Source of the DNA: an uncultured Candidatus Peribacteria bacterium
Lineage (GTDB): Bacteria > Patescibacteriota > Gracilibacteria > Peribacterales > Peribacteraceae
Assembly: GCA_964434585.1 (NCBI GenBank)
Contig: CAYSVN010000002.1
Span: forward strand, 1-41,895
Direction: 5' to 3'
Length of the DNA stretch: 41,895 nucleotides
The translations under genes were made by a program, and so were the position numbers. Numbering within the stretch: position 1 is the stretch's first letter; every line of letters begins with the position of its first letter. The notes beneath the pieces are model-generated. The model did no database searches and was not told where the DNA came from. It worked only from the letters and a program-made list of their open reading frames with translations. Positions 3,296-40,043 of this stretch are shown here, piece after piece.

Positions 3296-3309
3296 GGTAT
3301 ACTACAGGC

Positions 3310-4980: not shown

Positions 4981-4988
4981 TATTATTT

Positions 4989-6665
4989 ATGAACCAAACC
5001 TGTACTAATTGCGGCAGTGACTTCCAAATAACGGATGAAGATCTGGCGTTTTACGATAGCGTTTCACCAGTTATTAACGGGCAGAAATTTTTAGTACCAT
5101 CACCGTTGCAATGCCCTGACTGCCGATACCAAAACCGATTAACATGGCGTAACGAACGCTGGATGTATAAGCGCAATTGTGACGCTACTGGCAAGAGTGT
5201 GGTGTCTATTTTTTCGGCTGATAAAACGTGGCCGCCAGTTTATAAGCAAGATTTTTGGTGGAGCGATAAATGGAATGCACGTGATTATGGAAGAGATTTT
5301 GACTTTAACCGACCGTTTTTTGAACAATGGTTAGAGCTTTTTAAAGTGGTGCCACAGGCAGCGCTTAATAATCAACAGAGTGAAAATTGTGAGTACACTA
5401 ATCAATCACAACGTAATAAAGATTCCTATATGATATTTTGTAGCAACATGAGTGAGAACTGTATGCATAGCATGTGGTTACAAAAAAGTAGAGACACCAT
5501 GGATTGTTTATATACAGCAGAAGGAGAGCTAGCGTACGATATTTTAAATGGTGATGTTTGTTACCGGTGCAGCTCTTCATCGAACCTTAAAAACTGTAGT
5601 GACGTTCACTTTTCACGAGATTTAATTGGCTGTAGTAATTGTTTTGGCTGTATGAATTTACGCAATAAGCAGTATCATATTTTCAATGAACCACATAGCA
5701 AAGAAGATTATGAGCAAAAAATTGCTGAATTAAATTTACATTCTAGATCTGGACGATTAATGGCTAAAAAATATGCTGATGAATTTACAGCCGAGGTGAT
5801 TCATAAATATTATACTGGTAGTAACATAGAAGCATCTTCCGGAGATTATATTATGGATGTTACTAGTACGCGTGATTGTTTTAATTGCCGTGATACCGAG
5901 GCTACTGCTTACTGCCAAGACTTTTGGCGGGGACATCATTGCCAAGATCTTACCGAAGTTGCTGATGCTGAGTTTTGCTACCAAGTAGAAGGTTCTGCGC
6001 CCGGGAACCAAGTATTGTTCTCTAAAAAATTCTGCAATTTAACAAATAGCATGTATAGCTCGCATTGTAATAGTTCTAGTAACTTGTTTGGTTGTATTAG
6101 CTTAAATAATGGTGAGTATTGTATTTTAAATAAGCAGTATACGCGTGAGGAGTATGAAGCGTTGGTGCCACGTATTATTGAACATATGCAGTCTACAGGG
6201 GAGTGGGGACAGTACTTTCCAGCTACTGGTACGCCGTTTTGCTACAACGAAACCGTAGCTCAGGAATACTTTCCGTTAAGCAAGCAGCAAGCACTAGATG
6301 CTGGTTACTGCTGGCAAACGCACATGCCTAATACTACCGGTAAGCAAACAATAGAGTGGTCTGATGTGCCAGATAGTATAGCTGATATTACTGATGATAT
6401 TACGAAAGAAATTTTAAGCTGTACTTGCTGCAGTAAAAATTATCGTATTATTCCCCAAGAATTAATATTGTATAAGCAAATGCATATTCCGGTGCCAGAT
6501 GTTTGCGCAGATTGGCGACATGTATCACGGATGAATCGTCGTAATCCACGTAAGCTTTTTACTTTCCAGTGTGCTAAATGTTCTAAGGATATTGAAACAA
6601 CGTATCCACAACATAGCCAAGAAATTGTTTATTGTGAAGAATGTTACCTGTCTGCCGTCTATTAA
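4989..6665 (+). CDS. Cys-rich zinc-ribbon repeat protein, paralog 4
   Basis: 558 aa with the same architecture. It starts 8 nt after paralog 3. Confidence 0.92.
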   Translation: MNQTCTNCGSDFQITDEDLAFYDSVSPVINGQKFLVPSPLQCPDCRYQNRLTWRNERWMYKRNCDATGKSVVSIFSADKTWPPVYKQDFWWSDKWNARDYGRDFDFNRPFFEQWLELFKVVPQAALNNQQSENCEYTNQSQRNKDSYMIFCSNMSENCMHSMWLQKSRDTMDCLYTAEGELAYDILNGDVCYRCSSSSNLKNCSDVHFSRDLIGCSNCFGCMNLRNKQYHIFNEPHSKEDYEQKIAELNLHSRSGRLMAKKYADEFTAEVIHKYYTGSNIEASSGDYIMDVTSTRDCFNCRDTEATAYCQDFWRGHHCQDLTEVADAEFCYQVEGSAPGNQVLFSKKFCNLTNSMYSSHCNSSSNLFGCISLNNGEYCILNKQYTREEYEALVPRIIEHMQSTGEWGQYFPATGTPFCYNETVAQEYFPLSKQQALDAGYCWQTHMPNTTGKQTIEWSDVPDSIADITDDITKEILSCTCCSKNYRIIPQELILYKQMHIPVPDVCADWRHVSRMNRRNPRKLFTFQCAKCSKDIETTYPQHSQEIVYCEECYLSAVY

Positions 6666-6801: not shown

Positions 6802-9033
6802 ATGGCTTTAACATTCATTAATGTCACCATTCCACCGGGTAGCGGAGATCAAAGCAAATTTGAGTCTCGTTTTAATGAACTTGTGCTTTCGCTTTATAAC
6901 ACCGTTAGTAACCAACGTTTTAGTTTTGAATACATTGGTTTTAACCAACATACGTATTTTGCAATTGTTTGTGATACTCGTTACCAGGGAACTATTGAAG
7001 GTCTTATTTATTCGATGTTCCCAGATGCGGAAATTAAAATTGGTACCGATTATACGCTTAGTTTTGATCCACAAAAACAAGCATTTGCTGGAGCGGAATT
7101 AGTGCTTCGCGATAGTGATGTGTACCCGATTCAAACGTATGATCAATTTGAAAGTGACAGTATGTCGCGGTATTTTTCGAGCGTGAGTAAGATGGAACTA
7201 GGAGAGCAGGTGTGGACACAGGTTATTGTAGAGCCAAAATCTGAAACAGGCGTTTTTTACTTTAAGCGCCGATTTCGTGCTTGGATGGCCCGATTTAAAA
7301 CATGGTTCTCGGTAACAGATCGTCTACGTAAAGATGGACTACGTGGTATTAACAAAACTCGTCGTGAGTTTTCTGGTTACAAAGAAAAAGATAAGCCATT
7401 TACTACAACCATTCGTTGTGTGTACGTTGCAGATAGGCCTGATATTGCTAAAGCAAAACTTAATGCGGTGCTCGATAGCTTTACGCAATTTAACGACGAC
7501 GATATTAATGGATTTAAACCAAAAAAATCTACGAATAGTCCAGCATTCTTAAATAAATATAGAGCCCGCGTACATGGTGATAGCTACTTTTTAAGTTCGC
7601 GTGAAATTTCTACTATTTATCATTTTCCCAATGCTGATGCGGTAAGCCACGTTGTGCATGTGCTTGCGCGAAAGTCAGATCCACCAAAAGATTTACCAAA
7701 AGCTAGCGATAGTGATGTTAGCCCATTTGGAACCACAAACTATCACAATAACTTTGTACCATTTGGTATTAAGCGTAAAGATCGCCGCCGCCATTTGTAT
7801 GCCATTGGTAAGTCGGGTTCTGGTAAATCTAAAATGCTAGAACTACTTATTTATAGTGATGTAATGTCTGGCCAAGGAGTATGTGTATTAGATCCGCACG
7901 GTGACCTTTGTGATGCAGTGCTTAAAATGGTTCCTGAAGAACGCATACAAGATGTGATTATTTTTGATCCGTCTGATACAGAATTCCCGATTGCATTTAA
8001 CCCGTTGATGACCGTGGATCCGAAATATAAAATGCAACTTACCATTGGTATTATCGAGATCTTTAAAAAACTGTTTGGAGATAACTGGAGTGACCGCCTA
8101 GAACACGTACTGCGTTATACACTATTAGCGCTGCTTGATAGTCCAAATACAACGGTGCTTAGTATTTTAAAAATGCTTACCGATAAAAACTATCGCCAAC
8201 AAATTGTTTCGCGTATTCAAGATAATGTAGTTAAAAATTTTTGGGTATCAGAGTTTGCTGGTTGGTCTGAAAAATTTGATGCCACGGCTATTACGCCACT
8301 GCTAAACAAAGTGGGGCAGTTTGTGGCAACAGATATGATTCGTAATATTGTAGGGCAGCCAGAAACAAAATTTGATATTCGTGACGTGATGGATAATCGT
8401 AAAATTTTACTACTGAAAGTTTCTAAAGGACTCCTTGGTGAAGAAAATGCATCGCTGATTGGTTCGATGATTATTACGAAGATTTACCAAGCAGCCATGA
8501 GTCGTGCAGATATGGCAGAAGATGATCGAGCTGATTTTTACTTTTACGTGGATGAGTTCCAAAACTTTGCAACCGAGACATTCTACGAAATTATGTCGGA
8601 GGCTCGTAAGTATCACCTTTGTTTAACGATTGCGCACCAATACATGGGTCAGTTATCTGATAAAATTCGCCAAACTGTATTTGGTAACGTTGGTTCGATG
8701 ATTAGCTTTAGGGTAGGAGCAGAAGATGCCCGTATTTTGGCTGAGGAGTACAATCCTGTTTTTAATGAGCGCGATATTATTAACTTGGGGGTTCGTGAAT
8801 TTTACACAAAGCTCTCTGTTAATGGCGAATTGCGCGAAGCTTTTTCTGGTCGCACACTTAATGCTCCAGACCCAGAGCCAACATTAGTACCTAATATTAT
8901 TACATGGTCTCGCCAAACGTACTGTATGCCTAAAGACGAAGTTGCTAAAGTTATTAACGCCTGGGATGAAGGTAACTTAGATGCCGAAGCACCATCTGCC
9001 ATTGTAGAAGAATTTGAGGCACCGATTGTATAA
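6802..9033 (+). CDS. VirD4/TraG/TraD-type (type IV coupling-protein-like) P-loop ATPase, no membrane anchor, ~300-aa unassigned N-terminal domain
   Basis: Walker A is AIGKSGSGKSK followed by VLDPHGDL. Walker B is FYFYVDEFQNF. The C-terminal HLCLTIAHQYMGQL...FGNVGSMISFRVG is typical of the TraD/TraG C-terminal region. No hydrophobic N-terminal helices. Confidence 0.8.
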   Translation: MALTFINVTIPPGSGDQSKFESRFNELVLSLYNTVSNQRFSFEYIGFNQHTYFAIVCDTRYQGTIEGLIYSMFPDAEIKIGTDYTLSFDPQKQAFAGAELVLRDSDVYPIQTYDQFESDSMSRYFSSVSKMELGEQVWTQVIVEPKSETGVFYFKRRFRAWMARFKTWFSVTDRLRKDGLRGINKTRREFSGYKEKDKPFTTTIRCVYVADRPDIAKAKLNAVLDSFTQFNDDDINGFKPKKSTNSPAFLNKYRARVHGDSYFLSSREISTIYHFPNADAVSHVVHVLARKSDPPKDLPKASDSDVSPFGTTNYHNNFVPFGIKRKDRRRHLYAIGKSGSGKSKMLELLIYSDVMSGQGVCVLDPHGDLCDAVLKMVPEERIQDVIIFDPSDTEFPIAFNPLMTVDPKYKMQLTIGIIEIFKKLFGDNWSDRLEHVLRYTLLALLDSPNTTVLSILKMLTDKNYRQQIVSRIQDNVVKNFWVSEFAGWSEKFDATAITPLLNKVGQFVATDMIRNIVGQPETKFDIRDVMDNRKILLLKVSKGLLGEENASLIGSMIITKIYQAAMSRADMAEDDRADFYFYVDEFQNFATETFYEIMSEARKYHLCLTIAHQYMGQLSDKIRQTVFGNVGSMISFRVGAEDARILAEEYNPVFNERDIINLGVREFYTKLSVNGELREAFSGRTLNAPDPEPTLVPNIITWSRQTYCMPKDEVAKVINAWDEGNLDAEAPSAIVEEFEAPIV

Positions 9034-11297: not shown

Positions 11298-11704
11298 GGC
11301 AGGGATTAGGTTGCGGGAATTAGGGATTAGTGTTAGATTACTATCTTATGCCTATTAATAATTTTAAAGATCTCATTGTTTGGCAAAAATCTATGTATCT
11401 AGCTGAAATTATTCATGATATTTCGAAATTGTATCCAAATGATGAGCGTTATGGTCTTACAGGTCAGATCAGAAGGTGTGCGGTTTCAATTCCTTCAAAT
11501 ATTGCTGAGGGGTATTGTCGTAGTACCAGTAAAGACTACGCACGTTTTTTACATATTGCTTATGGATCTGCTGCTGAACTTGAAACCCAGTTACTTCTTT
11601 CAAAAAAATTTGGCTATATTAATTCTCAACAATTTCAATGTTGTGAATCAGTTTTGATAGAAATTCTTACCCCTAAACCTTAACCTCTAACCCCTAACCT
11701 TACC
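11296..11704. repeat. Imperfect inverted repeats of TTAGGG/GGGATTA-like units bracketing the four-helix-bundle gene (IVS-like cassette)
   Basis: The left arm at 11296-11336 (aaggcagggattaggttgcgggaattagggattag) is approximately the reverse complement of the right arm at 11666-11704 (cttacccctaaaccttaacctctaacccctaaccttacc). Confidence 0.6.
11348..11683 (+). CDS. Four-helix-bundle protein (23S rRNA intervening-sequence protein family)
   Basis: FKDLIVWQKSMYLAEIIHDISKLYPNDERYGLTGQIRRCAVSIPSNIAEGYCR...YGSAAELETQLLL is the family signature. The ATG at 11348 is preferred over the GTG at 11330. Confidence 0.88.
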   Translation: MPINNFKDLIVWQKSMYLAEIIHDISKLYPNDERYGLTGQIRRCAVSIPSNIAEGYCRSTSKDYARFLHIAYGSAAELETQLLLSKKFGYINSQQFQCCESVLIEILTPKP

Positions 11705-27888: not shown

Positions 27889-28440
27889 ATGCCTCGCCAT
27901 GTAAAACTTCGGCATTTAAGCCTTCTATTTTCGGGAAGTTTATTTAGCTTGCTTTTGCTTTCTTGGACATTGCTTACACCGCAGTTAGTACAGCGTGAAC
28001 TGGGAATGACTAGAGCCGATTTATTATACAAAAGCCAAGATTTACCAGTGATTGCCAGCGCGTTAGAGCAAATGCGCGTAGAAAGAAATGAAGATATAGA
28101 TCCCAGTCCATTACCAATATTTAGAGCGTTAGCACTAAAACGGCAACAGGAAGGAGGTAGTCTTAAAACTCTTGCAAGTATAGCTAGTGTCGTTAAAAAA
28201 TTTAATGCCGATACAGACGCTTATGTTGCGTTAGAACAAATTTCTTTTAAAGATAATGGATACCAATTAACTGGGGAGATTCAAAATGCCGATTTACAGG
28301 GCGCAACGGTTTTAGCTGAACTAATGAGTATTTTTGAAAGCCACAATGCATTACAAGTGGTTCGCTATCCTGCCTTTAAGCGTGCGATGCGAGATGGCGC
28401 GCTTGTAACTCCATTTACAACTACACTGCAGCATGATTAA
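27889..28440 (+). CDS. Hypothetical membrane-anchored protein (envelope operon gene 1)
   Basis: 183-aa ORF with an N-terminal hydrophobic anchor. Confidence 0.5.
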   Translation: MPRHVKLRHLSLLFSGSLFSLLLLSWTLLTPQLVQRELGMTRADLLYKSQDLPVIASALEQMRVERNEDIDPSPLPIFRALALKRQQEGGSLKTLASIASVVKKFNADTDAYVALEQISFKDNGYQLTGEIQNADLQGATVLAELMSIFESHNALQVVRYPAFKRAMRDGALVTPFTTTLQHD

Positions 28441-29272
28441 AAATCTCATTCGCATCGGTTATTTTTTATCTGTTATTTTACTACTAACAGCTTCTATTTA
28501 CCTTATTGTACAACACCGTTCGGTTTTGCAGGCTGCATCGCTATTTTCTGGCGTGGCTTCCCACTACGACCGAATAGAAAATGAAGTATCACTTTTAGGT
28601 GATCAACGTGATCAGTCTCATTTTCTAAAAAGCCAGCAGCGCAGCATTCGCTTAGAACAATTGGAAGCCTATGTTATACCTCATACTGTATTATTCGAAC
28701 GTCTTAATAAATTTATAAGCATTATTGAAAAAGCCTTACAACAACAAGATATTGATAGCGTTTTATCTATACAACAATTACAAGATTCTAGTGCCGTGCG
28801 TTATAATGACACTACTATTACTACGCATGATATTACTGTAAGCATGAAGGTTAATCGCAATAGTATATTGCGTCTTTTTACCATGCTTAATACCAGTGGC
28901 ATGTTAACATTGTACGATGCATTTACGCCTACAGAGCGCCAAGAATTACTAGAGGTAGTGCTAAATGAAGATCCAGGATCCTTACAAGCTCTTGAGACAT
29001 TTTTTGCTTCCTCGTTACTTGATTACAGTGCGGCTCCAGAGAAGCATATTGAACAATTACTTGTATTTATTGCCTCAGAAAATAATGTTTTTGTTGTTCA
29101 AGATATTCTTAGGGCTTCGCAATTACAAATGATGGCTACCTTCTTAAAACAGGCTTCAGTAGATTTGCGCCCAATATGGCCAGCACCATTGCTAGAGGTT
29201 CAATCTGCTACATTTATAGAGCAGGGAGATTATTTAGAAGGAATACTATTACTACAAACATTTACACAGTAA
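28433..29272 (+). CDS. Hypothetical membrane-anchored protein (envelope operon gene 2)
   Basis: 279 aa with an N-terminal TM helix. Overlaps the upstream gene by 8 nt. Confidence 0.5.
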   Translation: MIKNLIRIGYFLSVILLLTASIYLIVQHRSVLQAASLFSGVASHYDRIENEVSLLGDQRDQSHFLKSQQRSIRLEQLEAYVIPHTVLFERLNKFISIIEKALQQQDIDSVLSIQQLQDSSAVRYNDTTITTHDITVSMKVNRNSILRLFTMLNTSGMLTLYDAFTPTERQELLEVVLNEDPGSLQALETFFASSLLDYSAAPEKHIEQLLVFIASENNVFVVQDILRASQLQMMATFLKQASVDLRPIWPAPLLEVQSATFIEQGDYLEGILLLQTFTQ

Positions 29273-29364
29273 TGTTTTAGTTATTATTATTTGTAATTTA
29301 ATATAAAAAAACTATAGATAGCCCTAGTAAAATTAGCTTAGATCTGCTATAATAAGTAGATTTA

Positions 29365-30345
29365 ATGCATATAAACACACATCAAATTGTACGTTTTGCC
29401 GTACTGACATGGCTACTAATACCCGCGCTTGTTATGGCTGCGGGCCAAAGTGCTAACTTTAGCCTTAATGGCCAGTTAGAAAACAGTAAAAATGGTGTAT
29501 CACCAAGCTTTGATATGGAGATTCAAAATGAACCATGGAAAGTTGGTGGTGAAAGTCCTAGCTTCCAAATTATTAATAATAGCCACTTTGTGGCTAGTTC
29601 TTCATCAAGCTCTTCGAGCAGCTCTTCTGCTCCTGGTGTTATTCTAGGAACAGGCGGTGGCGATGGTGGCTCTGGCGGCTGTCGTACTAACGACACTTGT
29701 CCAGATGATGGCGGTACCGATGGTGATACTGCTGTTATTGGTGATAGTAGTGGGGTCGATGCTGGTGGCATTGGTGGTGATGACAGTGGAAACACCGGAG
29801 GAACTATTGGTGACACTGGTGGTGATGATAATGGTGATATTGGAGGTGTTGATGGGGCAATTGAAAATGCTGGTGATGATGGAAGCTTTTTCCCTGCTCC
29901 TACTGTTGAGCCATTTGTGCCTGTTATTATTATTGATAATGCTTCAGAAATTTCTAATCAATTTAATTATTTTGGCTATGGGTCTGAAGCAGAACTACGC
30001 AACGCTTATGTGTTAGCAGCTAGTGCTATGAATTGTGGCCCTGCTCCTGAACATCGTCAATGTACTCATCAAAATGTTTGTAAAGAACTCCTAGATGAAT
30101 ACGCTCCGGCTTGCAGCGATGTGGCCATTTGTGTCCTTGACCATGATTGTACTGCTTCTTTACAGGCTAATGATGAAGCTTTTAACAGATGGCTTGCTCA
30201 TCAGCGTACAACATTCCATGCTAGCGCTTCACAAGAATTTGTTCGTTACTATATTGGTACAGCTTTCTCATTACTTGTGTTTATGCTTGCGCTTTATGCT
30301 TTATTTTTTACTCACCGTAAATTAACTCAGTCCTCTTTACTATAA
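29365..30345 (+). CDS. Secreted Ser-run / Gly-Asp-rich protein with Cys-containing domain and C-terminal TM anchor
   Basis: Signal peptide, an S10-like run, a GGDGGSGG...GDDNGDIGG acidic Gly-rich region, and a C-terminal hydrophobic helix followed by HRK. A TGcTATAAT box lies at 29345-29353 upstream. Confidence 0.6.
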   Translation: MHINTHQIVRFAVLTWLLIPALVMAAGQSANFSLNGQLENSKNGVSPSFDMEIQNEPWKVGGESPSFQIINNSHFVASSSSSSSSSSSAPGVILGTGGGDGGSGGCRTNDTCPDDGGTDGDTAVIGDSSGVDAGGIGGDDSGNTGGTIGDTGGDDNGDIGGVDGAIENAGDDGSFFPAPTVEPFVPVIIIDNASEISNQFNYFGYGSEAELRNAYVLAASAMNCGPAPEHRQCTHQNVCKELLDEYAPACSDVAICVLDHDCTASLQANDEAFNRWLAHQRTTFHASASQEFVRYYIGTAFSLLVFMLALYALFFTHRKLTQSSLL

Positions 30346-31634
30346 TGTTCTATCTTCAAACCTTATCGCGATTTTTATTTCTAATGGTGTTACTGCTTAT
30401 TCCGGTACTTTCTGTTCAGGCACAAAATGATGTCCCTAATACCTATATGTATAATGGACACTTGCTAGACCCTGCTGGAAATCCTATTACAGCACCCATT
30501 GATTTACGGTTCAGCTTTTGGACTAACACCGATTACGTTCCTACTGATACATTGCCAAGTGGCGGTGTTAATACTGGTGCTCTCGATTATGCAGGCTGGA
30601 TAGAAGTTCATACCATTACGACAAATGCTGATGGGTACTTTTCTGTCATTCTTGGCGAAACTGTGCCGTTGCCATCATTTGCCTTTACTTCTGTTGGAAC
30701 AAGTACATTGCAAAGCCTATACCTACAGGTTGATGCTAAAATGAATGGTGATCCATTAACGAGCTATGAATTATTAGATTGTGATATTACCGTTCCTACA
30801 CGTGACCGTTCTCCAATTTTATCCGTACCGTTTGCACATAATGCTAGTTTTCTTAACGGTGCTAGTGTTGGCGTAACAGAAGGTGATATTGCCTTACTTG
30901 GTACGGATGGTGTCTTTAATATTGTTCATGTGCCATGGGGTACAAACTACGATAGTTTTACATTAGATGCTGATGGTACTGCTGGAACAGGGGATAGTAT
31001 TGAGTTAGTATTTGGCTCTATTGCTAATATTTTAAGTTTTGATATTGATAACGATTGGTTTAATTTTAATAATGATGTAAATATTGATGGTGATTTAACT
31101 GTAACCGGTTTAATTAATGGTGTTGATGTTACAACACTCTTTACAGCTAATGCTTTAACGGGTTCTCATTTAGAAGTTTACACTCCGCATTATAGTGATG
31201 TTTCTTATACCGATGATGGTACCAACAATGTTGGCCAATTGCTTTTGGAACATGATATTGCTGAAGGAAATTTTTACCGCTGGCGCAGCACGCGGACTAC
31301 GTTGCAAGATTACACTATTACAATGGAGCATACTCTGCCGCTTAATTTTCTAGGCTGGGACGATAGTAGTCCATTTGAGGTTCGCTACCGTACCAGTGAT
31401 ACTGCCGTTAATTCTGCCTTAGATATTGAGCTTTATGATACCTCTGGAACACTTGTTGGTTCAGCGCTTGGACTTAGTAGCTCAGGAACTTGGGACACTG
31501 CTACATTTATACCAGTTGGCACTTGGAATCCAGGCGAAAAATTAAAAGTAGTATATACCCCGTATGCACTTACGGGTCATAATGTTGATGTTGGCGATAC
31601 TCGTTTAATGTATACCGTTATTAATAGTACGTAA
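30345..31634 (+). CDS. Secreted hypothetical protein
   Basis: 429 aa with a signal peptide ending VQAQ. TAATG overlap with the upstream gene. Confidence 0.6.
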   Translation: MFYLQTLSRFLFLMVLLLIPVLSVQAQNDVPNTYMYNGHLLDPAGNPITAPIDLRFSFWTNTDYVPTDTLPSGGVNTGALDYAGWIEVHTITTNADGYFSVILGETVPLPSFAFTSVGTSTLQSLYLQVDAKMNGDPLTSYELLDCDITVPTRDRSPILSVPFAHNASFLNGASVGVTEGDIALLGTDGVFNIVHVPWGTNYDSFTLDADGTAGTGDSIELVFGSIANILSFDIDNDWFNFNNDVNIDGDLTVTGLINGVDVTTLFTANALTGSHLEVYTPHYSDVSYTDDGTNNVGQLLLEHDIAEGNFYRWRSTRTTLQDYTITMEHTLPLNFLGWDDSSPFEVRYRTSDTAVNSALDIELYDTSGTLVGSALGLSSSGTWDTATFIPVGTWNPGEKLKVVYTPYALTGHNVDVGDTRLMYTVINST

Positions 31635-31635
31635 C

Positions 31636-32754
31636 ATGCATTCACGCTATCAAAAAGTAATGGCTTTAATTGTTACAGCTATTTTGCTGGTATTTTCTGG
31701 CATTATTGTTAAGCAAGAATTAGCCGCATCGTTACTCGATATTAAAGGAACCCCTTACCATACTTCGTTTTCTTACCTTTTAAGTCGTGGTATTATTGAT
31801 GGTTATCCTGATAAAACAGGACGACCTTATGGATATATTAATAGAGCAGAAGTGGTAAAAGTATTGGTAAATGCTCGTGAAGACTTACGCTTAAAGTTGC
31901 CAGAAATTGAAGCTGGATTACCACAGTTTCCGTTGTTTGTGGATACCCAACAAGACCAATGGTATGCTCCACATTTAGAGCTTGGTTTTAAAGAACAGCT
32001 TGTTACTGGTTACCCAGATGGTAGTTTTAGACCAGGCCAACTCGTGCGTGTAGAAGAGGCGGTCGCACTATTAACAAGAGCATTTAAACTACATGAAACA
32101 CGTAACGATGTTGTAGATTCTGCTTATATAGAAAACCAACCTAACCAATGGTTTACATTACCAATTAATGCGGCGGTGGCTCGTAATCTTATTCAACATA
32201 AGTCTAACCTACGTTTAGGTACGGCTATGACACGTGGCCAATTTTTCGATATGTTATACCGTTTACATCTTATCCAAAATACAGACCAAGCTATGTACCA
32301 GGGCCCAGAACCATTTGAGGAACTACCAGATTTACCAGATGCTCCAGCAGTTGAAAATATTGCTATTAGTATAGAGCAGCCTAATACCTCTAGCCCGATT
32401 GCAGTTGAATATGGTGGTGACACTGAAGTTGCGACTGAAATTGCTGCTCCACCTCCACCTCCACCTCCACCGCCTGCGCCTCCAGTTAATACTACTATTA
32501 ATACTGGTCAAAACACTGGTGGTAGCACAGTATCTGCCAATAATAATGGTGGCGGCACTACGACCACAGTTAACAATAATGGCGGTAGCACTATTAACTC
32601 TAACAATAATGGTGGTGGCACTACTGTTAATGCTGGTTCTTCTAACAATGGTGGTACTATTAATGCTGGCTCTAATCCATTATTTTTGATCCAAATTTAC
32701 CGATTGAATATGTCGATAGTCATCCAGAAAAATCGTTTTTACCTTATGCTATGA
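31636..32754 (+). CDS. Membrane-anchored SLH-domain protein with poly-Pro and Asn/Gly-rich linker; the 3' end looks frameshifted
   Basis: N-terminal TM helix. Three SLH repeats (e.g. FVDTQQDQWYAPHLELGFKEQLVTGYPDGSFRPGQLVRVEEAVALLTRAF), then P9APP and NNNGG(G/S)T repeats. The last ~24 aa after the T5 run at 32683-32687 look non-native. Confidence 0.7.
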   Translation: MHSRYQKVMALIVTAILLVFSGIIVKQELAASLLDIKGTPYHTSFSYLLSRGIIDGYPDKTGRPYGYINRAEVVKVLVNAREDLRLKLPEIEAGLPQFPLFVDTQQDQWYAPHLELGFKEQLVTGYPDGSFRPGQLVRVEEAVALLTRAFKLHETRNDVVDSAYIENQPNQWFTLPINAAVARNLIQHKSNLRLGTAMTRGQFFDMLYRLHLIQNTDQAMYQGPEPFEELPDLPDAPAVENIAISIEQPNTSSPIAVEYGGDTEVATEIAAPPPPPPPPPAPPVNTTINTGQNTGGSTVSANNNGGGTTTTVNNNGGSTINSNNNGGGTTVNAGSSNNGGTINAGSNPLFLIQIYRLNMSIVIQKNRFYLML

Positions 32755-33170
32755 ACTTACCTACCATCGGTATTCGTAATGTTCCTATTTTAAAACCGAG
32801 CAATGTTACGAGTCGTGCAGGGTTAGAGGCTGTGCTAGATAAGGGTATTGGAAATATTATGAACCAGCCCGGTGGTGGTGGTAATGAGTTTTACTACGGC
32901 CATAGTAGTAGCTATGTCGATACATTGTATTCCCGTATTTTCCGGGCAATTTCTGGCATGAACCCAGGTGATAAATTCTACATTACATATAAAGGTATTG
33001 TGTTTGAGTACCAAGTTGATCGCCATGAAATTATTGCAGCAGCAGATACAAGTGTTTACCGTGATTCTGGTATTGCTAGAGCAGTGCTTTACACCTGCCA
33101 CCCACCTGGAGGATTTTCGCACCGGTATGTTATTTTTGGCACACCGGTTAAAGCGTACGTTATTAAGTAA
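32751..33170 (+). CDS. Sortase-family transpeptidase catalytic domain (no own membrane anchor; probably the 3' part of the preceding gene)
   Basis: Starts at LPTIGIRNVPI. His is in YYGHSS, the catalytic Cys in VLYTCHP, and Arg in SHRYVIFG, with sortase-like spacing. The frame is open upstream to 32676. Confidence 0.65.
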   Translation: MNLPTIGIRNVPILKPSNVTSRAGLEAVLDKGIGNIMNQPGGGGNEFYYGHSSSYVDTLYSRIFRAISGMNPGDKFYITYKGIVFEYQVDRHEIIAAADTSVYRDSGIARAVLYTCHPPGGFSHRYVIFGTPVKAYVIK

Positions 33171-33209
33171 GAACTACTAATAATGTGTTAGTTAACGTAT
33201 ACTTATTCT

Positions 33210-34895
33210 ATGGAAAAAGTATGTGTACATTGTCAGGCTCAGTTTAATTTTACAGCTGAAGATGATGCACTACTGCAAAAATTATTACCAACTATTAACG
33301 GACAAGTTTATACACTGCCTAAGCCAACGCGTTGCCCCGACTGCCGAAGCCAACAGCGGCTTGCAACCGGCAATCAGTTATTTTTAAGCATGCGCACCTG
33401 TGACTACACTGGTGAGAGTATTATGTCGCATTATCCTAAAGATTCTAAATACACGGTGTACTCACAAGATAAATGGCACTTAGAGCCATGGGAAGCTAGA
33501 GACTATGGCCGAGACTACGATTTTAATCGACCGTTTTTTGAACAATTTAAAGATTTAATGTTGGCGGTACCACATCCAGCTTTGTTGACTGATTTTTTAT
33601 TTGATCAAAATTGCTCATACACTAATCATGCTGGCCATAATAAAGACTGTTACCTAATTTTTGACTCTGATGACTGTGAAGATTGTTACCTTAGTTATAG
33701 CGTGCATAAATGCAAAGATTGCTTAGATTGTTTTAGGCTTCGTGAGTGTGAACTTTGTACAGAGTGCGTGGATTGTTACGATTGTTATGGCTGTAAATAT
33801 TGCCAAGACAGCTCGAATTGTAGCGATAGTGCGTTTTTAAAAGACTGCGTTGGCTGTCGTCATTGTTTATTTTGCAGTAACCTTCAAAGTAAAGAATATT
33901 GTATTTTTAACAAGCAGGTTTCTAAAGAAGAATTTGAGGCTGCTTGGAGTAAATTATCATCACGGCAGTATTGTTTAGAGCAGCAAAAAATATTTAAAGA
34001 TTGGCATATGCAGTTTCCTAAACGAGCGTTCCATGGTGTTAATAATGAAGATGTTTCTGGAGATTACATTGATAGTAGTAAAAATTCACATGGTTGTTTT
34101 GATAGTTCTAAACAGTGGGATTGCCGACACTGCTGCCAGGCTTGGGACGGGTTAAAAGACAGTATGGATACACAAGAATGTGGACTTTCGGAATTCCTGT
34201 ATGAAACAGCCTATATGGGCGAGAATTGTCAAAATACCTACTTTACCTGCTTAAGCCCAGGTGGATGTTTGTATAATGTTTTTTATAGTATGTACTGTAT
34301 TCATGGTAAAAATTTATTTGGTTGCTTTGGTATGCGTAAATCTGAGTACTGTATTTTAAATAAGCAGTATACCGAGGCAGAATATAACGAATTGGTACCA
34401 CGTATTATTCAACATATGATGCAGACAGGGGAGTGGGGAGAGTTTTTCCCAATTGATACTTCGCCATTTTTCTATAACGAAACATTAGCCCAGGACCATT
34501 ACCCATTAACAAAATCTGAAACATTAAGCCGTGGTTGGCCTTGGCAAGACCCAGTTGAAGAGCAGCTTGAGTTTACAAAATCTATTAATGCTCAGCAGTT
34601 ACCAGACACCATTGCCGATATCCCCGACGATGTTCTTAATTGGGTGATTGTTCCTCGTGACGGTAAACCGTTTAAAATTGTGTCTCAAGAGCTTGCATTG
34701 CGTAGAACCATGAATGCTGCATTGCCGCTAGAACCTTTTTTAAGTCGTTATCATCGTTGGCGTGCTATGCGGAATGAGCGTGTTCTGTATCATCGCCAGT
34801 GCCAACATTGTTCTAAAGACATTCAAACAACGTATGCCCCTAATAGGCCAGAGATTGTGTATTGTGAAGAATGCTATCTTAAAGAGGTTTATTAG
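33210..34895 (+). CDS. Cys-rich zinc-ribbon repeat protein, paralog 5 (distal copy)
   Basis: 561 aa with the same architecture as 1-6665, and about 41 Cys by hand count. The C-terminal module has lost some Cys. Confidence 0.92.
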   Translation: MEKVCVHCQAQFNFTAEDDALLQKLLPTINGQVYTLPKPTRCPDCRSQQRLATGNQLFLSMRTCDYTGESIMSHYPKDSKYTVYSQDKWHLEPWEARDYGRDYDFNRPFFEQFKDLMLAVPHPALLTDFLFDQNCSYTNHAGHNKDCYLIFDSDDCEDCYLSYSVHKCKDCLDCFRLRECELCTECVDCYDCYGCKYCQDSSNCSDSAFLKDCVGCRHCLFCSNLQSKEYCIFNKQVSKEEFEAAWSKLSSRQYCLEQQKIFKDWHMQFPKRAFHGVNNEDVSGDYIDSSKNSHGCFDSSKQWDCRHCCQAWDGLKDSMDTQECGLSEFLYETAYMGENCQNTYFTCLSPGGCLYNVFYSMYCIHGKNLFGCFGMRKSEYCILNKQYTEAEYNELVPRIIQHMMQTGEWGEFFPIDTSPFFYNETLAQDHYPLTKSETLSRGWPWQDPVEEQLEFTKSINAQQLPDTIADIPDDVLNWVIVPRDGKPFKIVSQELALRRTMNAALPLEPFLSRYHRWRAMRNERVLYHRQCQHCSKDIQTTYAPNRPEIVYCEECYLKEVY

Positions 34896-34896
34896 T

Positions 34897-35733
34897 TTAA
34901 ACCACTCCTGCAAGTGTCGTGGCAATCCAGTAGCTTAGACCAATAATAACAAGTCCTATTACCATGCGTACAATCATAGAACGTGCATTTGTTATGTCTT
35001 CATCGTTACCGAGGCCAATAACAAGGCGAATGCCGTAGTAAATTAAAATAGTAACGCCAATAATAAAGAATAGTACTAAAATTGAACCTGTAACACGGCC
35101 AATAATATTAACAATTGGGCCAGGGTTAATATTTACAAAGCTTTCGGCTAATACGTACCGTGCGGTAATAAATACTAAGCCAATAACAAGTGAGACAATC
35201 GCTTGCCGCATGGTACCAGCGCCGTCTTCTGAACCAAATGAGGCCACTGCACGAATACCAGTAACAATAATAGACGCAATAATAAGCATTCCCACCAGGA
35301 AACTTGCCCAGTTTATAAGTCCATCTACCTCTGCAATAATAGTGCCGACGCCACCACTTTGGTAATTAATAAATGCATTAGCAATAATATAAGCCATATT
35401 AATAATAATAAGGCCTGAAACACAGCCAATAACAATGTTTTTAAGTCTGGCAGCGTTGCCTTCATCATCAATAATTACCATCATTAGCCCGCCTACAATA
35501 ATCATAATTACTGCGATAATTGATACTAATGGAACAAAACCCTCTAATACCAGAATAAAATTTTGCACTAATGTTACAAATGCACCACCTCCTGATGCAG
35601 CTCCACCACCACCAGTAATGGGGTCTAGTGTTCCTCCTACTGAAGTAATGCCAGCATCAATTAAACTAGGATCGCCAGCTTGGGCAAATACAATACTAGG
35701 AATGGCAATGATGAGTAGCAAAAGAAACCTCAT
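34897..35733 (-). CDS. Secreted polytopic protein made of three tandem TrbC/VirB2-like (T4SS pilin-type) 2-TM modules
   Basis: Signal peptide MRFLLLLIIAIPSIVFAQA. Three repeats of TM, short charged loop (DDEGNAARL / GSEDGAGTMR / GNDEDITNAR), TM. The ATG at 35733 is preferred over the one at 35766. Confidence 0.6.
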   Translation of the reverse strand: MRFLLLLIIAIPSIVFAQAGDPSLIDAGITSVGGTLDPITGGGGAASGGGAFVTLVQNFILVLEGFVPLVSIIAVIMIIVGGLMMVIIDDEGNAARLKNIVIGCVSGLIIINMAYIIANAFINYQSGGVGTIIAEVDGLINWASFLVGMLIIASIIVTGIRAVASFGSEDGAGTMRQAIVSLVIGLVFITARYVLAESFVNINPGPIVNIIGRVTGSILVLFFIIGVTILIYYGIRLVIGLGNDEDITNARSMIVRMVIGLVIIGLSYWIATTLAGVV

Positions 35734-35738
35734 GTTTT

Positions 35739-36548
35739 TTAAAAGAAAATTTCTAAAATAGTCCAACTAGAAACAACAATTAATAGTGCCGTTGCAGTGG
35801 TAAGCATTATTTTTTGACCACGATCTTTTAAGCTGTCTTGTACGGAAATAGCATAAAAAAAGCCTCCAATCATAAAGCCTATAACACAAAGTCCACCAAA
35901 GAATACGGCTGCAAAATTAATAATACGCGAAAATTCTGAAGCTAGTGGAGCTTGATTGAAGCCCATAATAGATTCGACAATAGGTACAGCTAGCAATACA
36001 AAAATCGCACCGAATATTGTTAATGCTACCTGCTTACGGGCTTGTGCCATGTAGTCTGTTCCAAAGGATGTTACAAGGCGAGTTGCCTGAATAAACATTG
36101 TTACAACTATTGCGATACCTAGTAATGATTTTAGAATAGTTACTATTGTACCAAGTACGCTTGCAAGAGGTTCTATACTTGGGCTTGGCCCTGTAAATAC
36201 AGCAGCAATTTGTTGTGCAGCTAATACTATTACCGTTGCTCCAAACGCGTATGCTAGCGATAAGCTAACCTCTTTATGGTTTCCGGTGTGGCTAAGAAAC
36301 ACTGCTCTTGCACCATAATAGACGACCATAATAACAAGAATCATTTGGAAAATTGTTTGCAAGTCTACTGATATTGTTGCCACAATTGCTTCCAAATTTG
36401 TGTAATTGGAAAGCCCCGGATGGTTAGCGGTTTGTAGGCAATCTCTAAAAGGTTTATTGTAGTCTTCTATTGCCCCTCCTTCGCATTGTGCAAATGCTAA
36501 CTTAGGAACAATAAATGCCAGTAGTGCGAAAAAATAATATCTCATCAT
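35739..36548 (-). CDS. Second protein with three tandem TrbC/VirB2-like 2-TM modules
   Basis: Signal peptide MMRYYFFALLAFIVPKLAFAQ, starting at 36548 rather than 36650. Three TM-loop-TM repeats with loops HTGNHKEV / FGTDYMAQARK / VQDSLKDRGQK. Confidence 0.55.
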   Translation of the reverse strand: MMRYYFFALLAFIVPKLAFAQCEGGAIEDYNKPFRDCLQTANHPGLSNYTNLEAIVATISVDLQTIFQMILVIMVVYYGARAVFLSHTGNHKEVSLSLAYAFGATVIVLAAQQIAAVFTGPSPSIEPLASVLGTIVTILKSLLGIAIVVTMFIQATRLVTSFGTDYMAQARKQVALTIFGAIFVLLAVPIVESIMGFNQAPLASEFSRIINFAAVFFGGLCVIGFMIGGFFYAISVQDSLKDRGQKIMLTTATALLIVVSSWTILEIFF

Positions 36549-36775
36549 ATTATTATACCACAGAAGACGCTTAAGAGGTAGAAGACGTTGTAAAAGTTTT
36601 CGATGATGAATGGTGCTAGTGGCAACATCGATGTCAGCTATCTGCACCATTCACGATCCACTATATAACAAAAAATCTCTATTATTTTCTAGAACATCTT
36701 AAACTTTTTTAGCTGCTAACGTGCTTTACAGCGTTTTTTCCTGTACTATATCGTTATATTATTTCACCAATTTTT

Positions 36776-37471
36776 ATGGATCAATCCTCTCGTGTCGAAT
36801 CTGTGCGCTCGCTTACGGCTACAGATCGCCAACATTTTATTGCGAAAACTTATACACATTTAGCACTAGCTTTAACTGCTTTTGTGGCTTTAGAAGCTCT
36901 TTTATTACGCATTCCAGGCGTGCGTGATTTTGCAAGTACTATGACATCTGGTCGTTGGAGTTGGTTGATTGTCCTTGGTGTCTTTATGTTTGTTTCTAAT
37001 ATGGCTCATCGTTGGGCGCAATCTAGTACTAGTATCCCTATGCAATATGGTGGATTAGCACTTTATGTTGTTGCGCAAGCAATTATCTTTTTACCATTGC
37101 TGTTATTTGCTGGCTCGTACCATCCAGATGTTATTGTTACCGCTGGCTTAACAACCTTAGGTTTGTTCTTAGGTCTTTCTGTAGTTGTTCATACTACTAA
37201 ATTTAATGCTTCTGGTATGGGTGGTATATTAACTGCAATTAGCTTAGGTGCATTTGCGCTTATTATTCTTTCGATTGTTTTTACGTTTTCGCTTGGTATT
37301 CTATTTACTGTAGCAATGATTACCTTAGCTTGTGCATACATTGTGTACGACACAAGTAACGTTATTCACCGTTATAACACCAATCAGTACGTTGCGGCCT
37401 CACTTTCTTTGTTTGCATCGGTTGCGTTACTGCTATGGTATGTGGTACAGTTTGCGCTCTCACGAGAGTAA
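36776..37471 (+). CDS. BAX inhibitor-1 / YccA-family membrane protein
   Basis: 7 TM helices. N-terminal FIAKTYTHLALAL and C-terminal YIVYDTSNVIHRY are family-typical. Confidence 0.8.
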   Translation: MDQSSRVESVRSLTATDRQHFIAKTYTHLALALTAFVALEALLLRIPGVRDFASTMTSGRWSWLIVLGVFMFVSNMAHRWAQSSTSIPMQYGGLALYVVAQAIIFLPLLLFAGSYHPDVIVTAGLTTLGLFLGLSVVVHTTKFNASGMGGILTAISLGAFALIILSIVFTFSLGILFTVAMITLACAYIVYDTSNVIHRYNTNQYVAASLSLFASVALLLWYVVQFALSRE

Positions 37472-37785: not shown

Positions 37786-38100
37786 TTATATTATATGTAT
37801 CAGCATAGGACTATCGATTGCCACAGCTGTTACTAAGCTTAATAGTGTCCCCATCATACTAAGTAGTACTATTAATACTAGTCGCCAATTTTGCTTATAT
37901 GCTTGTATAAGTACAATAATAATAGAACATAACCACCATATTATCATCACTAATATAACAGCCATTAATATTGGCACTATCGTACTAGAAAAATACTGAG
38001 GCGTCTTCAATTGCAATGAGTGTAATAATGCTAAGCTAACTGTTGCTACAGCTAACAGTATTGCTAGTAGTAACCATAGCTCTAACTTTCTATTTTTCAC
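37786..38100 (-). CDS. Small 3-TM membrane protein
   Basis: 104 aa. The GTG start overlaps the upstream stop (TAGTG). Confidence 0.5.
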   Translation of the reverse strand: MKNRKLELWLLLAILLAVATVSLALLHSLQLKTPQYFSSTIVPILMAVILVMIIWWLCSIIIVLIQAYKQNWRLVLIVLLSMMGTLLSLVTAVAIDSPMLIHII

Positions 38101-40043
38101 TAACGTAAGTCAATAACGTAGATACGCTTGCTGTCTAGTAGGTATACACGGGATTCATTAGGAGTTACATATATATCAACTAAGTCTCCTAGCAAGTCTC
38201 CTTCTAGAATATATTGTCTTTGATAAACAGCCTTGCCGGTTTCGTTATCAGTAATAACAATAACCGCTCTACGATCTGGACTTAAAACATAAAGGTTTCC
38301 ATCAACAATTTTAACAATCTTTGTTGCGCCTTCTAGTACTCCAGCTGGTAAGCCGCTCAGGTCTAGTTCTTGTACTTCACCACGAAGCAGCTTGGTAATC
38401 TTCCCGTCTTCGTGCAAGGTGTACACACTACCGTCAATGGTCATATCTACAGCGTCTTCTAGTGCGCCATTTACGTTATATTCACTTGGTGCACCGTAAC
38501 GGTCGTTTAAGCGTTCGTATTTGTAAATTTGGTTAGCCTGAGGGCTTAGTACATAAAGAAAACGATTATACGTTGCTAGGTCAATTCCTGCTTTCCAGCC
38601 ACTGGCGTCATCTGTCTTCATGTTTGTTGGAATACCTTCAATAATTTCTATAATACTATCATCAGCGGTGTGGAATACCTTTGTGTTAAAGCGTTCAAAA
38701 TAAATACCACTACTAATAAGGTCATCACGTGAAACACGGTCGCCAGCGCCAACAACATTAAAGTTAACGTTGTAGATGTCTTGTCTATCAAAAACGGTAA
38801 ATTCTCCATCTTCTATTCCAATCATTCCTTGAGCCTTAATGTCTGGGGTTTCGGCTGCTAAATTAGCGATTTTATTTGCAGGAACTCTAAAGACGTTATT
38901 AATTTGCTCGCGCATGCTATCAACGCTCTCTAGTAAATTTAATGCTTCACTACGGTATAAACCTCGTTCATTTTCTAGTATGGCTTTTGCGTCTTGTTCG
39001 GCGCCTTCTAAAATGGCATTTGCACCTTCACGGTCATTGGCTAAATTTCTAGTTTCAGCAATGGTAATTTTATTATTAGCCTCTTCTACTAATGCTTGTA
39101 ATTCACCTCTGCCTTTACTAACTACCAATGAAGAATATAAAAATGTTATAAACCATAATGCAATAAATAGGCCAATAATACTGGCAATAAGCAACAAGTG
39201 TGCCCTGCGCTTACGGTCAGGATGGTGTAAGTCGCTTAGTAATGTAGAAAACCAAGCAGTATTAATGTTGGGCATTTTTGCACCAATATTCTTTGGTAGT
39301 TTTATTGTAGTTGCTTTGTCCTTAATTGTACTGAGCATTCCACTGGCTACCGTTGCTACACCACTTGTTTTTTTTGACATGCTTGGTAGTGAACTGCTTT
39401 TTGTTGTAGTTTGTGGAGCAATAGCCTCATGACTAATACCGTCTTTTACAACAAACACACCAATAGCTGCAGCTTCATTTTCTTGCTCTAGCAATGTGGT
39501 AATAGTGGTAATAATTTCTTCTGCATTATTGCCCATGTTACTTAATTGCGCTGGTGTTGTTACACGTAGTAAGCGCTCGGTACTACAAATAATAATATCG
39601 TGCTGTTGTAATTCTCCGCTAGCAATGTGAACAAAATTTACACTGGCGCCACGAGTATATTCTGTAATTTGATTCGCTTGGTTATCGCGAATAATATAGG
39701 CTTCTGCCTGTCCAATGTGTGATGCAGAAAAAGTGTTATCTCCATCAAGGTGTCCTAAGAATGCTTGAATGTTTAATGATGTATCGCGTTGCGTGTAAGA
39801 ATCTAAAATATCGTTTGCTGCCTTTAGGCATTCATCAAAGCCGGTTTGGTTTTGAGGGTTCTTAATAATGTGTTGATCAATTACTCCGACTAGGTCTTCT
39901 TTTAATGTGTACATTTCTGGCTCATCGCTGTTTATTTGTAGTAGTAATACTACCGTTTCTCCACTAGGTGCCGTTAGTGTTTCGTGGAATATTGTTCCTA
40001 AAAAAGCAGAGTTTGTTTGCTTGGTTGTAATATCAAGATTCAT
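38100..40043 (-). CDS. Bitopic membrane protein: degenerate PP2C/SpoIIE-like N-domain, TM, coiled coil, beta-rich C-terminal domain
   Basis: ASHIGQAEAYIIRDNQANQITEY and GELQQHDIIICSTERLL resemble PP2C strands. The central TM is LLLIASIIGLFIALWFITFLY. The function call is weak. Confidence 0.35.
   Translation of the reverse strand: MNLDITTKQTNSAFLGTIFHETLTAPSGETVVLLLQINSDEPEMYTLKEDLVGVIDQHIIKNPQNQTGFDECLKAANDILDSYTQRDTSLNIQAFLGHLDGDNTFSASHIGQAEAYIIRDNQANQITEYTRGASVNFVHIASGELQQHDIIICSTERLLRVTTPAQLSNMGNNAEEIITTITTLLEQENEAAAIGVFVVKDGISHEAIAPQTTTKSSSLPSMSKKTSGVATVASGMLSTIKDKATTIKLPKNIGAKMPNINTAWFSTLLSDLHHPDRKRRAHLLLIASIIGLFIALWFITFLYSSLVVSKGRGELQALVEEANNKITIAETRNLANDREGANAILEGAEQDAKAILENERGLYRSEALNLLESVDSMREQINNVFRVPANKIANLAAETPDIKAQGMIGIEDGEFTVFDRQDIYNVNFNVVGAGDRVSRDDLISSGIYFERFNTKVFHTADDSIIEIIEGIPTNMKTDDASGWKAGIDLATYNRFLYVLSPQANQIYKYERLNDRYGAPSEYNVNGALEDAVDMTIDGSVYTLHEDGKITKLLRGEVQELDLSGLPAGVLEGATKIVKIVDGNLYVLSPDRRAVIVITDNETGKAVYQRQYILEGDLLGDLVDIYVTPNESRVYLLDSKRIYVIDLR

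Follow-up and report, generated by a model that had tools for sequence, protein, structure and literature searches.

We analyzed a 41,895-nt stretch of Candidatus Peribacteria DNA (contig CAYSVN010000002.1, around 38% G+C; hereafter the window, to whose full length all coordinates refer), in which a lone member of a cysteine-rich (Cys-rich) zinc-ribbon protein family, paralog 5, lies tail to tail with two genes encoding pilin-like type IV secretion system (T4SS) proteins, here called pilA and pilB. Our results indicate that paralog 5 and pilA/pilB are likely to be two unrelated units, which are neighbors by descent and not by function. The original prediction had combined this contact with that between a tandem array of the same family and a VirD4/TraG-like ATPase gene. 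It read the two as independent juxtapositions of the Cys-rich family with T4SS components, and as guilt-by-association evidence for a shared, undescribed secretion- or surface-filament-linked system. We found that the repeated pilin/Cys-rich association is not a real feature. In contrast, the link between the arrays and the VirD4-like ATPase is strongly non-random. The window genes have their closest relatives in Peregrinibacteria, Peribacteria, and Gracilibacteria, which are groups within Patescibacteria (Candidate Phyla Radiation, CPR).

Paralog 5 (33210–34895, plus strand) encodes a 561-aa copy of this ~560-aa family, from an ATG start to a TAG stop. It closes a plus-strand cluster, 40 nt past a sortase-domain open reading frame (ORF), and lies 26.5 kb from the main tandem array of four paralogs (3–6665, plus strand). 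The array copies occupy 3–1613 (cut by the window start), 1613–3295, 3310–4980, and 4989–6665, and the soluble VirD4/TraG-like P-loop ATPase gene (6802–9033, plus strand) follows 136 nt past the last of them. As predicted, paralog 5 belongs to the family of the array, with 38–44% identity to the four array copies. Inspection of the bases also confirmed the predicted contact between convergent genes: the TAG of paralog 5 ends at 34895, bases 34897–34899 read TTA, which on the minus strand is the TAA stop of pilA, and a single base (34896) separates the two stops. A scan of 32600–37000 for promoter-like and terminator-like sites gave numbers close to those of shuffled sequence (20 promoter-like sites vs. 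15.0 expected, sd 3.4; 3 terminator-like sites vs. 3.1), with no site of either kind in the 1-nt gap.

On the other side of this gap, pilA (34897–35733, minus strand) encodes a predicted signal peptide and three fused VirB2/T4SS_pilin-like two-helix modules (35365–35580, 35131–35340, and 34906–35115). A second three-module T4SS_pilin-like gene, pilB (35739–36548, minus strand; modules at 36189–36395, 35961–36167, and 35745–35936), lies 5 nt upstream of pilA, and the two genes are probably co-transcribed. Both products score above the gathering cut-off of PF18895 T4SS_pilin (39.1 bits for PilA and 31.2 bits for PilB; cut-off 26.6), in line with the VirB2/TrbC-like modules first proposed for them. 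The three tandem modules of each protein are mutually alignable and around 70 residues long. Each protein has 6–8 hydrophobic segments, eight of them in PilA, and the two proteins share 19% identity. Mechanical ORF calling gave longer genes (34897–35766 with a TTG start and 35739–36650 with an ATG start). We consider the shorter starts at 35733 (MRFLLLLIIAIPSIVFAQAG...) and 36548 (MMRYYFFALLAFIVPKLAFAQ...) to be the better calls because they fall right at signal-peptide-like N-termini (MRFLLLLIIAIPSIVFAQA and MMRYYFFALLAFIVPKLAFAQ, a resemblance judged by eye and not with a dedicated predictor).

A homologue search with PilA matched its own sequence alone, hydrophobic words having saturated the candidate list. 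A three-module pilin profile recovered P0129, the PilB orthologue, which is 61% identical and led to contigs L163–L165. These match the window between 29.3 and 41.4 kb at 72–79% nucleotide identity and represent a sister lineage; a further contig, L166, is the window's own population, with 99.4% identity. The order in L163–L165 is a YceI gene, a gene for a 647-aa protein, a Bax-inhibitor-1 (BI-1) family gene, pilB, pilA, the Cys-rich gene (convergent with pilA, stops abutting), a gene with SLH and sortase domains, and a gene for a 430-aa protein. This sister lineage is the sole recurrence of the pilin adjacency, and there synteny with the window extends over the whole 12-kb block. Since the pair was co-inherited with the whole block, the recurrence represents one evolutionary event and not an independent juxtaposition. 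The Cys-rich gene, pilA, and pilB are the fastest-evolving genes of the block: amino acid identity between the sister lineage and the window is 39% for the Cys-rich protein, 54% for PilA (orthologue in L164), and 61% for PilB (L163–L165), compared to 82–91% for the SLH-sortase protein. In both lineages, the Cys-rich gene follows the SLH-sortase cluster in the same orientation, after a gap of around 40 nt.

The sister contigs also show lesions in this pair. The positional orthologue of paralog 5 in L163 (L163:6205–7782) has an in-frame stop and misses 54 residues; at this deletion point, L164 has GCAATGGAG flanking both sides of its gap of Ns. The pilA orthologue in L163 (L163:5735–6198) is without its middle part (residues ~107–244), while pilA is intact in L164. 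The lesions of L163 reflect either strain-level decay or an assembly error or collapse. We dropped a frameshift or pseudogene reading of the Cys-rich gene in L164, where the interruption is a scaffold gap of Ns.

We then compared the neighborhoods of the family in one genome per GTDB species. This survey comprised 79 loci (L001–L079; 1.26 Mb) that included flanks of at most 10 kb to either side, in which ORFs were called and clustered by similarity; 87 Cys-rich units were surveyed. A hidden Markov model (HMM) built from the six pilin modules of the window gave a single match outside it across these 79 loci, L029:12426–12812, both in a search of filtered genes and in one of every ORF from 50 aa upward. 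A Pfam scan of all 80 neighbors with at least two hydrophobic segments returned the same lone PF18895 match. The HMM was sensitive enough: three unrelated CPR loci yielded 15 pilins with it, and it recovered the orthologues in L163 and L164. The L029 pilin gene comes after rpsP and a KH-protein gene and before ftsA/ftsZ, with none of the window's neighbor genes present. Similarly, none of six further neighborhoods annotated with Pfam contained a T4SS_pilin gene, and no VirB4- or VirB6-type family recurred among 70 large proteins within 5 kb of the family. A direct search with PilA and PilB (phmmer) against all locus ORFs was abandoned: it gave no matches outside the window, as these pilins diverge too fast. 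If pilin clusters have a background density of about 3 per Mb, around 0.5 pilin loci would be expected within 1 kb of the 87 units by chance, and one was observed; the adjacency within the window was itself noticed after the event. Across other genomes, the pilin/Cys-rich adjacency is thus at chance level. For this half of the prediction, the family has the random neighborhood distribution that had been named as its refutation.

The VirD4 half fared differently. Only three families recur around Cys-rich genes in the survey: the Cys-rich family itself (266 genes in 80 loci, i.e., the 79 loci and the window), a protein of ~252 aa matching Pfam TrmB (48 bits) and usually divergent from the Cys-rich genes (31 loci), and orthologues of the VirD4-like ATPase (28 loci, 27 plus the window; most above 800 bits, with 51–65% identity). 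A unit entered the partner counts only if its flank on the side in question was 2.5 kb or longer. Among arrays of two or more copies, the VirD4-like gene lies directly downstream in 16 of 27 (directly upstream in one more), and the TrmB-like gene directly upstream in 18 of 31 (inside the array in three more and downstream in one). For lone copies, the corresponding figures are 1 of 27 (two more with the VirD4-like gene directly upstream) and 2 of 20. The same pattern was seen in six further neighborhoods with precomputed Pfam labels, one of which, L168, contains four successive divergent TrmB/Cys-rich pairs, one to one. Arrays typically have 2–9 diverged copies; the architecture of the window's main array recurs in most of the related loci, and about half of the 87 units are lone copies with variable neighbors. 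We conclude that the array/VirD4-like link is strongly non-random, and that the cassette of array, TrmB-like regulator, and ATPase is real; we found no description of it in the literature searched. Of the two proposed links, that with the VirD4-like ATPase holds, in 16 of 27 arrays, and that with the pilins does not, being seen in 1 of 79 loci and in none of the six further ones. Paralog 5 is without the typical setting, in which a TrmB-like regulator and a VirD4-like ATPase flank a tandem array. Its nearest relatives are all inside arrays, with no pilin nearby.

Of all partners of the Cys-rich genes, the TrmB-family helix-turn-helix (HTH) regulator is the most tightly linked, usually divergent at the array head and sometimes within the array (L001–L079, L167–L170). 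The window begins inside array copy 1, so that a regulator of its own would fall off the edge, upstream of position 1. Small genes occur in or beside arrays at L003, L028, L030, L036, L039, L044, L050, L057, L069, L070, and L073, and at 11330–11683 in the window. By sequence similarity and not by a family scan, they are RelE/ParE-like, MazF-like, nucleotidyltransferase-like, ORF6N-like, or of a four-helix-bundle type (23S rRNA intervening-sequence type). Their presence suggests that arrays may be variable, insertion-tolerant regions. An association of lone copies with SLH/sortase surface-protein genes was also considered and not retained, on the basis of few, weak, and scattered matches (L043, L013, L019/L031).

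We next considered whether the ATPase marks a T4SS. As predicted, it scores above the Pfam cut-offs, for T4SS-DNA_transf (38.6 bits; cut-off 20.1), TrwB_AAD_bind (26.1; 20.5), and TraG-D_C (23.3; 22), with a Walker A motif (GKSGSGKS) at residue 336 and a Walker B motif (YFYVDE) at residue 580. By sequence, its closest solved structure is TrwB, in the P-loop region only. Against the NCBIfam equivalogs of type IV coupling proteins (T4CPs), it is far under all cut-offs (best conju_CD1115, 53 bits vs. 250). Hydropathy analysis revealed no N-terminal membrane anchor: the maximum over 19 residues is 1.28 and no segment reaches 1.6. The ~300 N-terminal residues instead form a soluble domain, listed as PF26449 DUF8128 in orthologues. 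Neither a relaxase nor virB4 was present among the window proteins scanned. The ATPase also matches a phage family of unknown function (phrog_5156, 227 bits, residues 181–718) and, weakly, PADLOC mad8 (41.6 bits), together with HerA models; in viral contigs, the window ATPase sequence, used alone as the query, found no relatives.

A scan with an ATPase alignment returned 80 CPR loci (L083–L162). The usual neighbors there, assigned by similarity and not by a family scan, are a sigma-like HTH protein, topA, pgk, recJ, rnhA, murJ, and secDF. Just four to six of these loci contain Cys-rich arrays, and three related ones contain pilin clusters. Judged from these neighbors, the CPR context of the ATPase appears to be housekeeping and not conjugation. 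A protein of ~345 aa resembling sigma-70 region 4 most often precedes the ATPase gene (26 of 80 loci). In a published survey, 5,713 T4CP homologues were found in 2,918 of 3,035 Patescibacterial genomes, and just 148 of them were near virB4; t4cp was dispensable in the sole cultivated organism tested, though other T4SS genes were essential, and the authors raised exaptation of CPR T4CPs (PMC12102498). The ATPase is a weak T4SS marker because it is without a membrane anchor, occurs CPR-wide, and usually lies among housekeeping genes.

The Cys-rich proteins themselves look cytoplasmic and metal-binding. No hydrophobic or membrane segment and no signal peptide was detected in them by hydropathy analysis. 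Paralog 5 has 41 cysteines (7.3%; family range 5.6–7.6%), and at its terminal CxxC pairs (C5, C8, C42, C45, C531, C534, C552, and C555) cysteine is found in 96–100% of 113 sequences. The family core carries conserved runs of cysteines spaced by three residues, e.g., C183, C186, C189, and C192, or C213, C216, C219, and C222, a spacing that suggests serial metal sites, as read from the sequence. In paralog 5, such runs cover residues ~159–222 and 296–381. Sequence inspection also revealed an internal duplication, each Cys-rich block ending with K-x-Y-C-I-x-N-K-Q...E-E-Y-E and a helix. An AlphaFold2 model of paralog 5 (predicted local distance difference test, pLDDT, 88.8; predicted template modeling score, pTM, 0.90) has zinc ribbons at both ends and between them two beta-rich Cys blocks, each followed by the conserved motif and helix. 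A fold search with this model produced nothing significant in PDB (lowest E 0.4) or in BFVD (lowest E 0.12). We rejected left-handed beta-helix and zinc-ribbon fold matches (E 0.1–10) as too weak to be evidence of homology. A sequence profile search of PDB gave solely a LIM-like zinc finger (E 0.005), and no Pfam or NCBIfam family covers the ~450-residue core formed by the two Cys-rich beta-rich blocks and the conserved C-terminal region. A surface-filament role is ill-suited to these proteins because they read as cytoplasmic and metal-binding.

Homologues of paralog 5 number at least 5,484 proteins at E ≤ 1e-5, with full-length matches down to E 1e-189; most top matches fall between E 1e-189 and 1e-156, with a coverage of 96–100%. 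The family is specific to Peregrinibacteria and relatives. In viral contigs it is essentially absent, with one partial match, and we rejected a phage or mobile-element origin on this ground.

Taken together, we favor the following model. Paralog 5, like other lone copies, would be a duplicate that departed from the cassette, in which the TrmB-like protein may control expression of the Cys-rich genes and the Cys-rich proteins may be cytoplasmic clients or specificity adaptors of the ATPase. PilA and PilB would be exported by Sec and would build or vary a putative pilus-like conduit of the Patescibacterial T4SS-like apparatus. Paralog 5 and pilA are convergent and therefore have no shared promoter; their tail-to-tail contact would carry no functional meaning, and the two units would not belong to a shared system. 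Several points weigh against this model. The adjacency was kept in two lineages with ~73–79% identity in the flanks, and the stops abut in both (1 nt apart here and 0 nt in L164); a functional pairing confined to the clade would look like this too. A second pilin lies within 743 nt of a lone copy (in L029), one case above the ~0.2–0.5 expected, a difference that is not significant. ORF calling was crude, and L027 and L047, which are fragmented and maybe use an alternative genetic code, were effectively outside the survey; its flanks of at most 10 kb place any looser linkage beyond its reach. Lastly, it is from gene order only that we infer what the Cys-rich proteins may do with the ATPase.

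Other explanations were weighed against the same evidence. The cassette, with its divergent TrmB regulators, could be an undescribed cytoplasmic system of Peregrinibacteria, in which diversified zinc-ribbon proteins of a new fold are either acted on by a repurposed coupling-protein motor or direct themselves to it, and whose dispersed copy, in this lineage, also feeds a T4SS-like conduit built of the pilins; we consider this unlikely.

That all these genes form one secretion system, with the ATPase recruiting the Cys-rich proteins as substrates for delivery through a pilin-built conduit to the host cell, appears quite unlikely. The strong linkage of arrays and ATPase speaks for it, and diversified paralog arrays beside a coupling protein recall effector arsenals. 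A related ATPase is also found ~6 kb from tandem pilin clusters in the three CPR loci mentioned above, and the T4SS-like genes, with the pilin array among them, were reported as essential to the epibiotic growth of a cultivated Saccharibacterium (PMC12102498). However, pilins are not enriched near the family and no VirB4- or VirB6-type family recurs among its large neighbors. The ATPase is without a membrane anchor, has CPR relatives among housekeeping genes, and belongs to a class that was non-essential in the sole organism tested, in which other T4SS genes were essential (PMC12102498). As to the Cys-rich proteins, no export signal or effector-type domain (Pfam) was found in them, and we infer that proteins with multiple zinc sites would be poor candidates for export that depends on unfolding. 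The shared secretion- or surface-filament-linked system of the original prediction is thus not borne out.

A pairing restricted to the clade is improbable. Here, the lone Cys-rich copy would have been recruited to the pilin locus, e.g., as a cytoplasmic regulator or assembly factor, in a genus-level lineage only. Consistent with this, the tail-to-tail layout with abutting stops was kept between the window and L163/L164, and both partners evolve fast compared to the SLH-sortase protein. However, the entire 12-kb block is syntenic, so that retention requires no selection on the pair, and the convergent orientation leaves no shared promoter. The Cys-rich gene is aligned instead with the SLH-sortase cluster, at ~40 nt in both lineages, and in L163 both partners are damaged (an in-frame stop and the 54-residue deletion in the Cys-rich gene, a truncated pilA), be it by decay or assembly error.

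Least probable of all is a conflict or defense island, with Cys-rich paralogs as sensors, an FtsK/HerA-type ATPase as motor or effector, and unrelated pilins: the arrays do vary from 2 to 9 copies with interspersed toxin-antitoxin-like small genes, and the ATPase has its matches to mad8, HerA models, and phrog_5156, but the Cys-rich protein has no PADLOC match, the ATPase family is near-universal in CPR in housekeeping contexts (80 loci; PMC12102498), and the near absence of the Cys-rich family from viral contigs counters a mobile origin without being a test of defense.

The genes around the contact complete the block. Directly upstream of paralog 5, the SLH-domain and sortase-domain gene (31636–33170, plus strand; Pfam SLH and Sortase) is split in the window into two overlapping ORFs (31636–32754 and 32751–33170), where the sister lineage has one ORF of 520 aa (L163:7783–9345). 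A tblastn comparison with the L163 protein placed the frame change in a Pro/Asn/Gly-rich linker, between 32421 and 32679; the split reflects a genuine frameshift or else an error in sequencing. Four consecutive genes (27889–31634, plus strand; 183, 279, 326, and 429 aa) with hydrophobic or signal-like N-termini precede the SLH-sortase gene and paralog 5. None of these four had a family match, and the order from the 430-aa gene to the SLH-sortase gene is kept in L163. On the far side, the pilin pair lies between the Cys-rich gene and a gene for a BI-1 family membrane protein (36776–37471, plus strand; Pfam Bax1-I, 94.8 bits). The BI-1 gene is divergent from pilB, has the identical position in L163–L166, and sets the limit of the pilin transcription unit. 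Further on, 38100–40043 (minus strand) encodes a 647-aa protein with one central membrane segment, whose DNA is 79% identical in the sister lineage and which gave no match in Pfam, NCBIfam, PADLOC, or PHROG.

Had the repeated association been true, it would have linked a large uncharacterized family to the T4SS-like apparatus thought to be needed for the epibiotic life of Patescibacteria. A false lead is removed now that the pilin adjacency has proved to be synteny specific to a lineage, and the comparison proposed to check it, namely how often the family lies within 5 kb of T4SS-type genes, gave a split answer: the VirD4-like gene is linked to the arrays, pilin genes are not linked to the family, and no VirB4- or VirB6-type family recurs among its 70 large neighbors. 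The check yielded instead a robust cassette of a TrmB-like regulator, 2–9 Cys-rich paralogs, and a soluble VirD4-like ATPase. If the reading with a dispersed copy feeding the conduit were true, the Cys-rich proteins would be the first candidate substrates or adaptors of the Patescibacterial T4SS-like apparatus.

Among known systems, the coupling proteins VirD4, TraG, and TrwB share with the window ATPase the P-loop Walker A and B motifs and matches to the family models. The window ATPase differs in having a soluble N-terminal domain in place of their membrane anchor, and the scan of window proteins gave no counterpart of their linkage to a relaxase or virB4. At both termini, the Cys-rich family has CxxC...CxxC units that are similar to zf_Tbcl (PF13451), zf_Tbcl_2 (PF23477), and the CxxC-x17-CxxC domain (TIGR04272). 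The array copy at 3310–4980 passes the zf_Tbcl threshold (24.9 bits vs. 24) and stays below that of TIGR04272 (21.3 bits vs. 36). For paralog 5, which is below the zf_Tbcl_2 threshold (19.1 bits vs. 27), the likeness is a resemblance only, and in any case these domains span less than 15% of the Cys-rich protein.

Effector families with a conserved VirD4-binding domain are encoded near T4SSs, e.g., the Xanthomonas X-Tfe proteins with their XVIPCD domain. The likeness to them lies in the multiple diverged Cys-rich paralogs linked to a VirD4-like ATPase. Unlike these effectors, the Cys-rich proteins have no such VirD4-binding domain reported by Pfam, their conservation is even along the protein and not centered on a C-terminal signal domain, and the ATPase beside them is soluble and unlinked to a translocon.

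The pilin genes are closest to the tandem “VirB2 arrays” of Patescibacteria, which comprise 2–11 pilin genes with a mean identity of 25% (Microb Genom 2025, PMC12102498); among virB4-carrying assemblies with a pilin, the pilin gene is near virB4 in 1,135 of 1,948 (PMC12102498). In the window, VirB4, VirB6, and VirB3 families were absent from the 20 proteins scanned, which did not include every small ORF, and in this lack of virB4 or any other T4SS gene among them the locus departs from the published pilin loci. PilA and PilB resemble the VirB2 arrays in their PF18895 match, signal peptides, two-helix hairpins, tandem layout, and high divergence. They differ in architecture, with three fused modules per polypeptide compared to one module per gene in the VirB2 arrays; fused modules are unmentioned in the paper describing the latter (PMC12102498). 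Pilin proteins with several modules are widespread as a class: a search with the module profile matched 16,721 cluster representatives (clusters at 50% identity) at E ≤ 1e-3, the top 150 of them mostly with three modules and 260–320 aa, and proteins with 3–8 fused T4SS_pilin modules are common among the representatives P0122–P0271. Fused three-module pilin genes, such as those next to paralog 5, are a common yet unremarked class.

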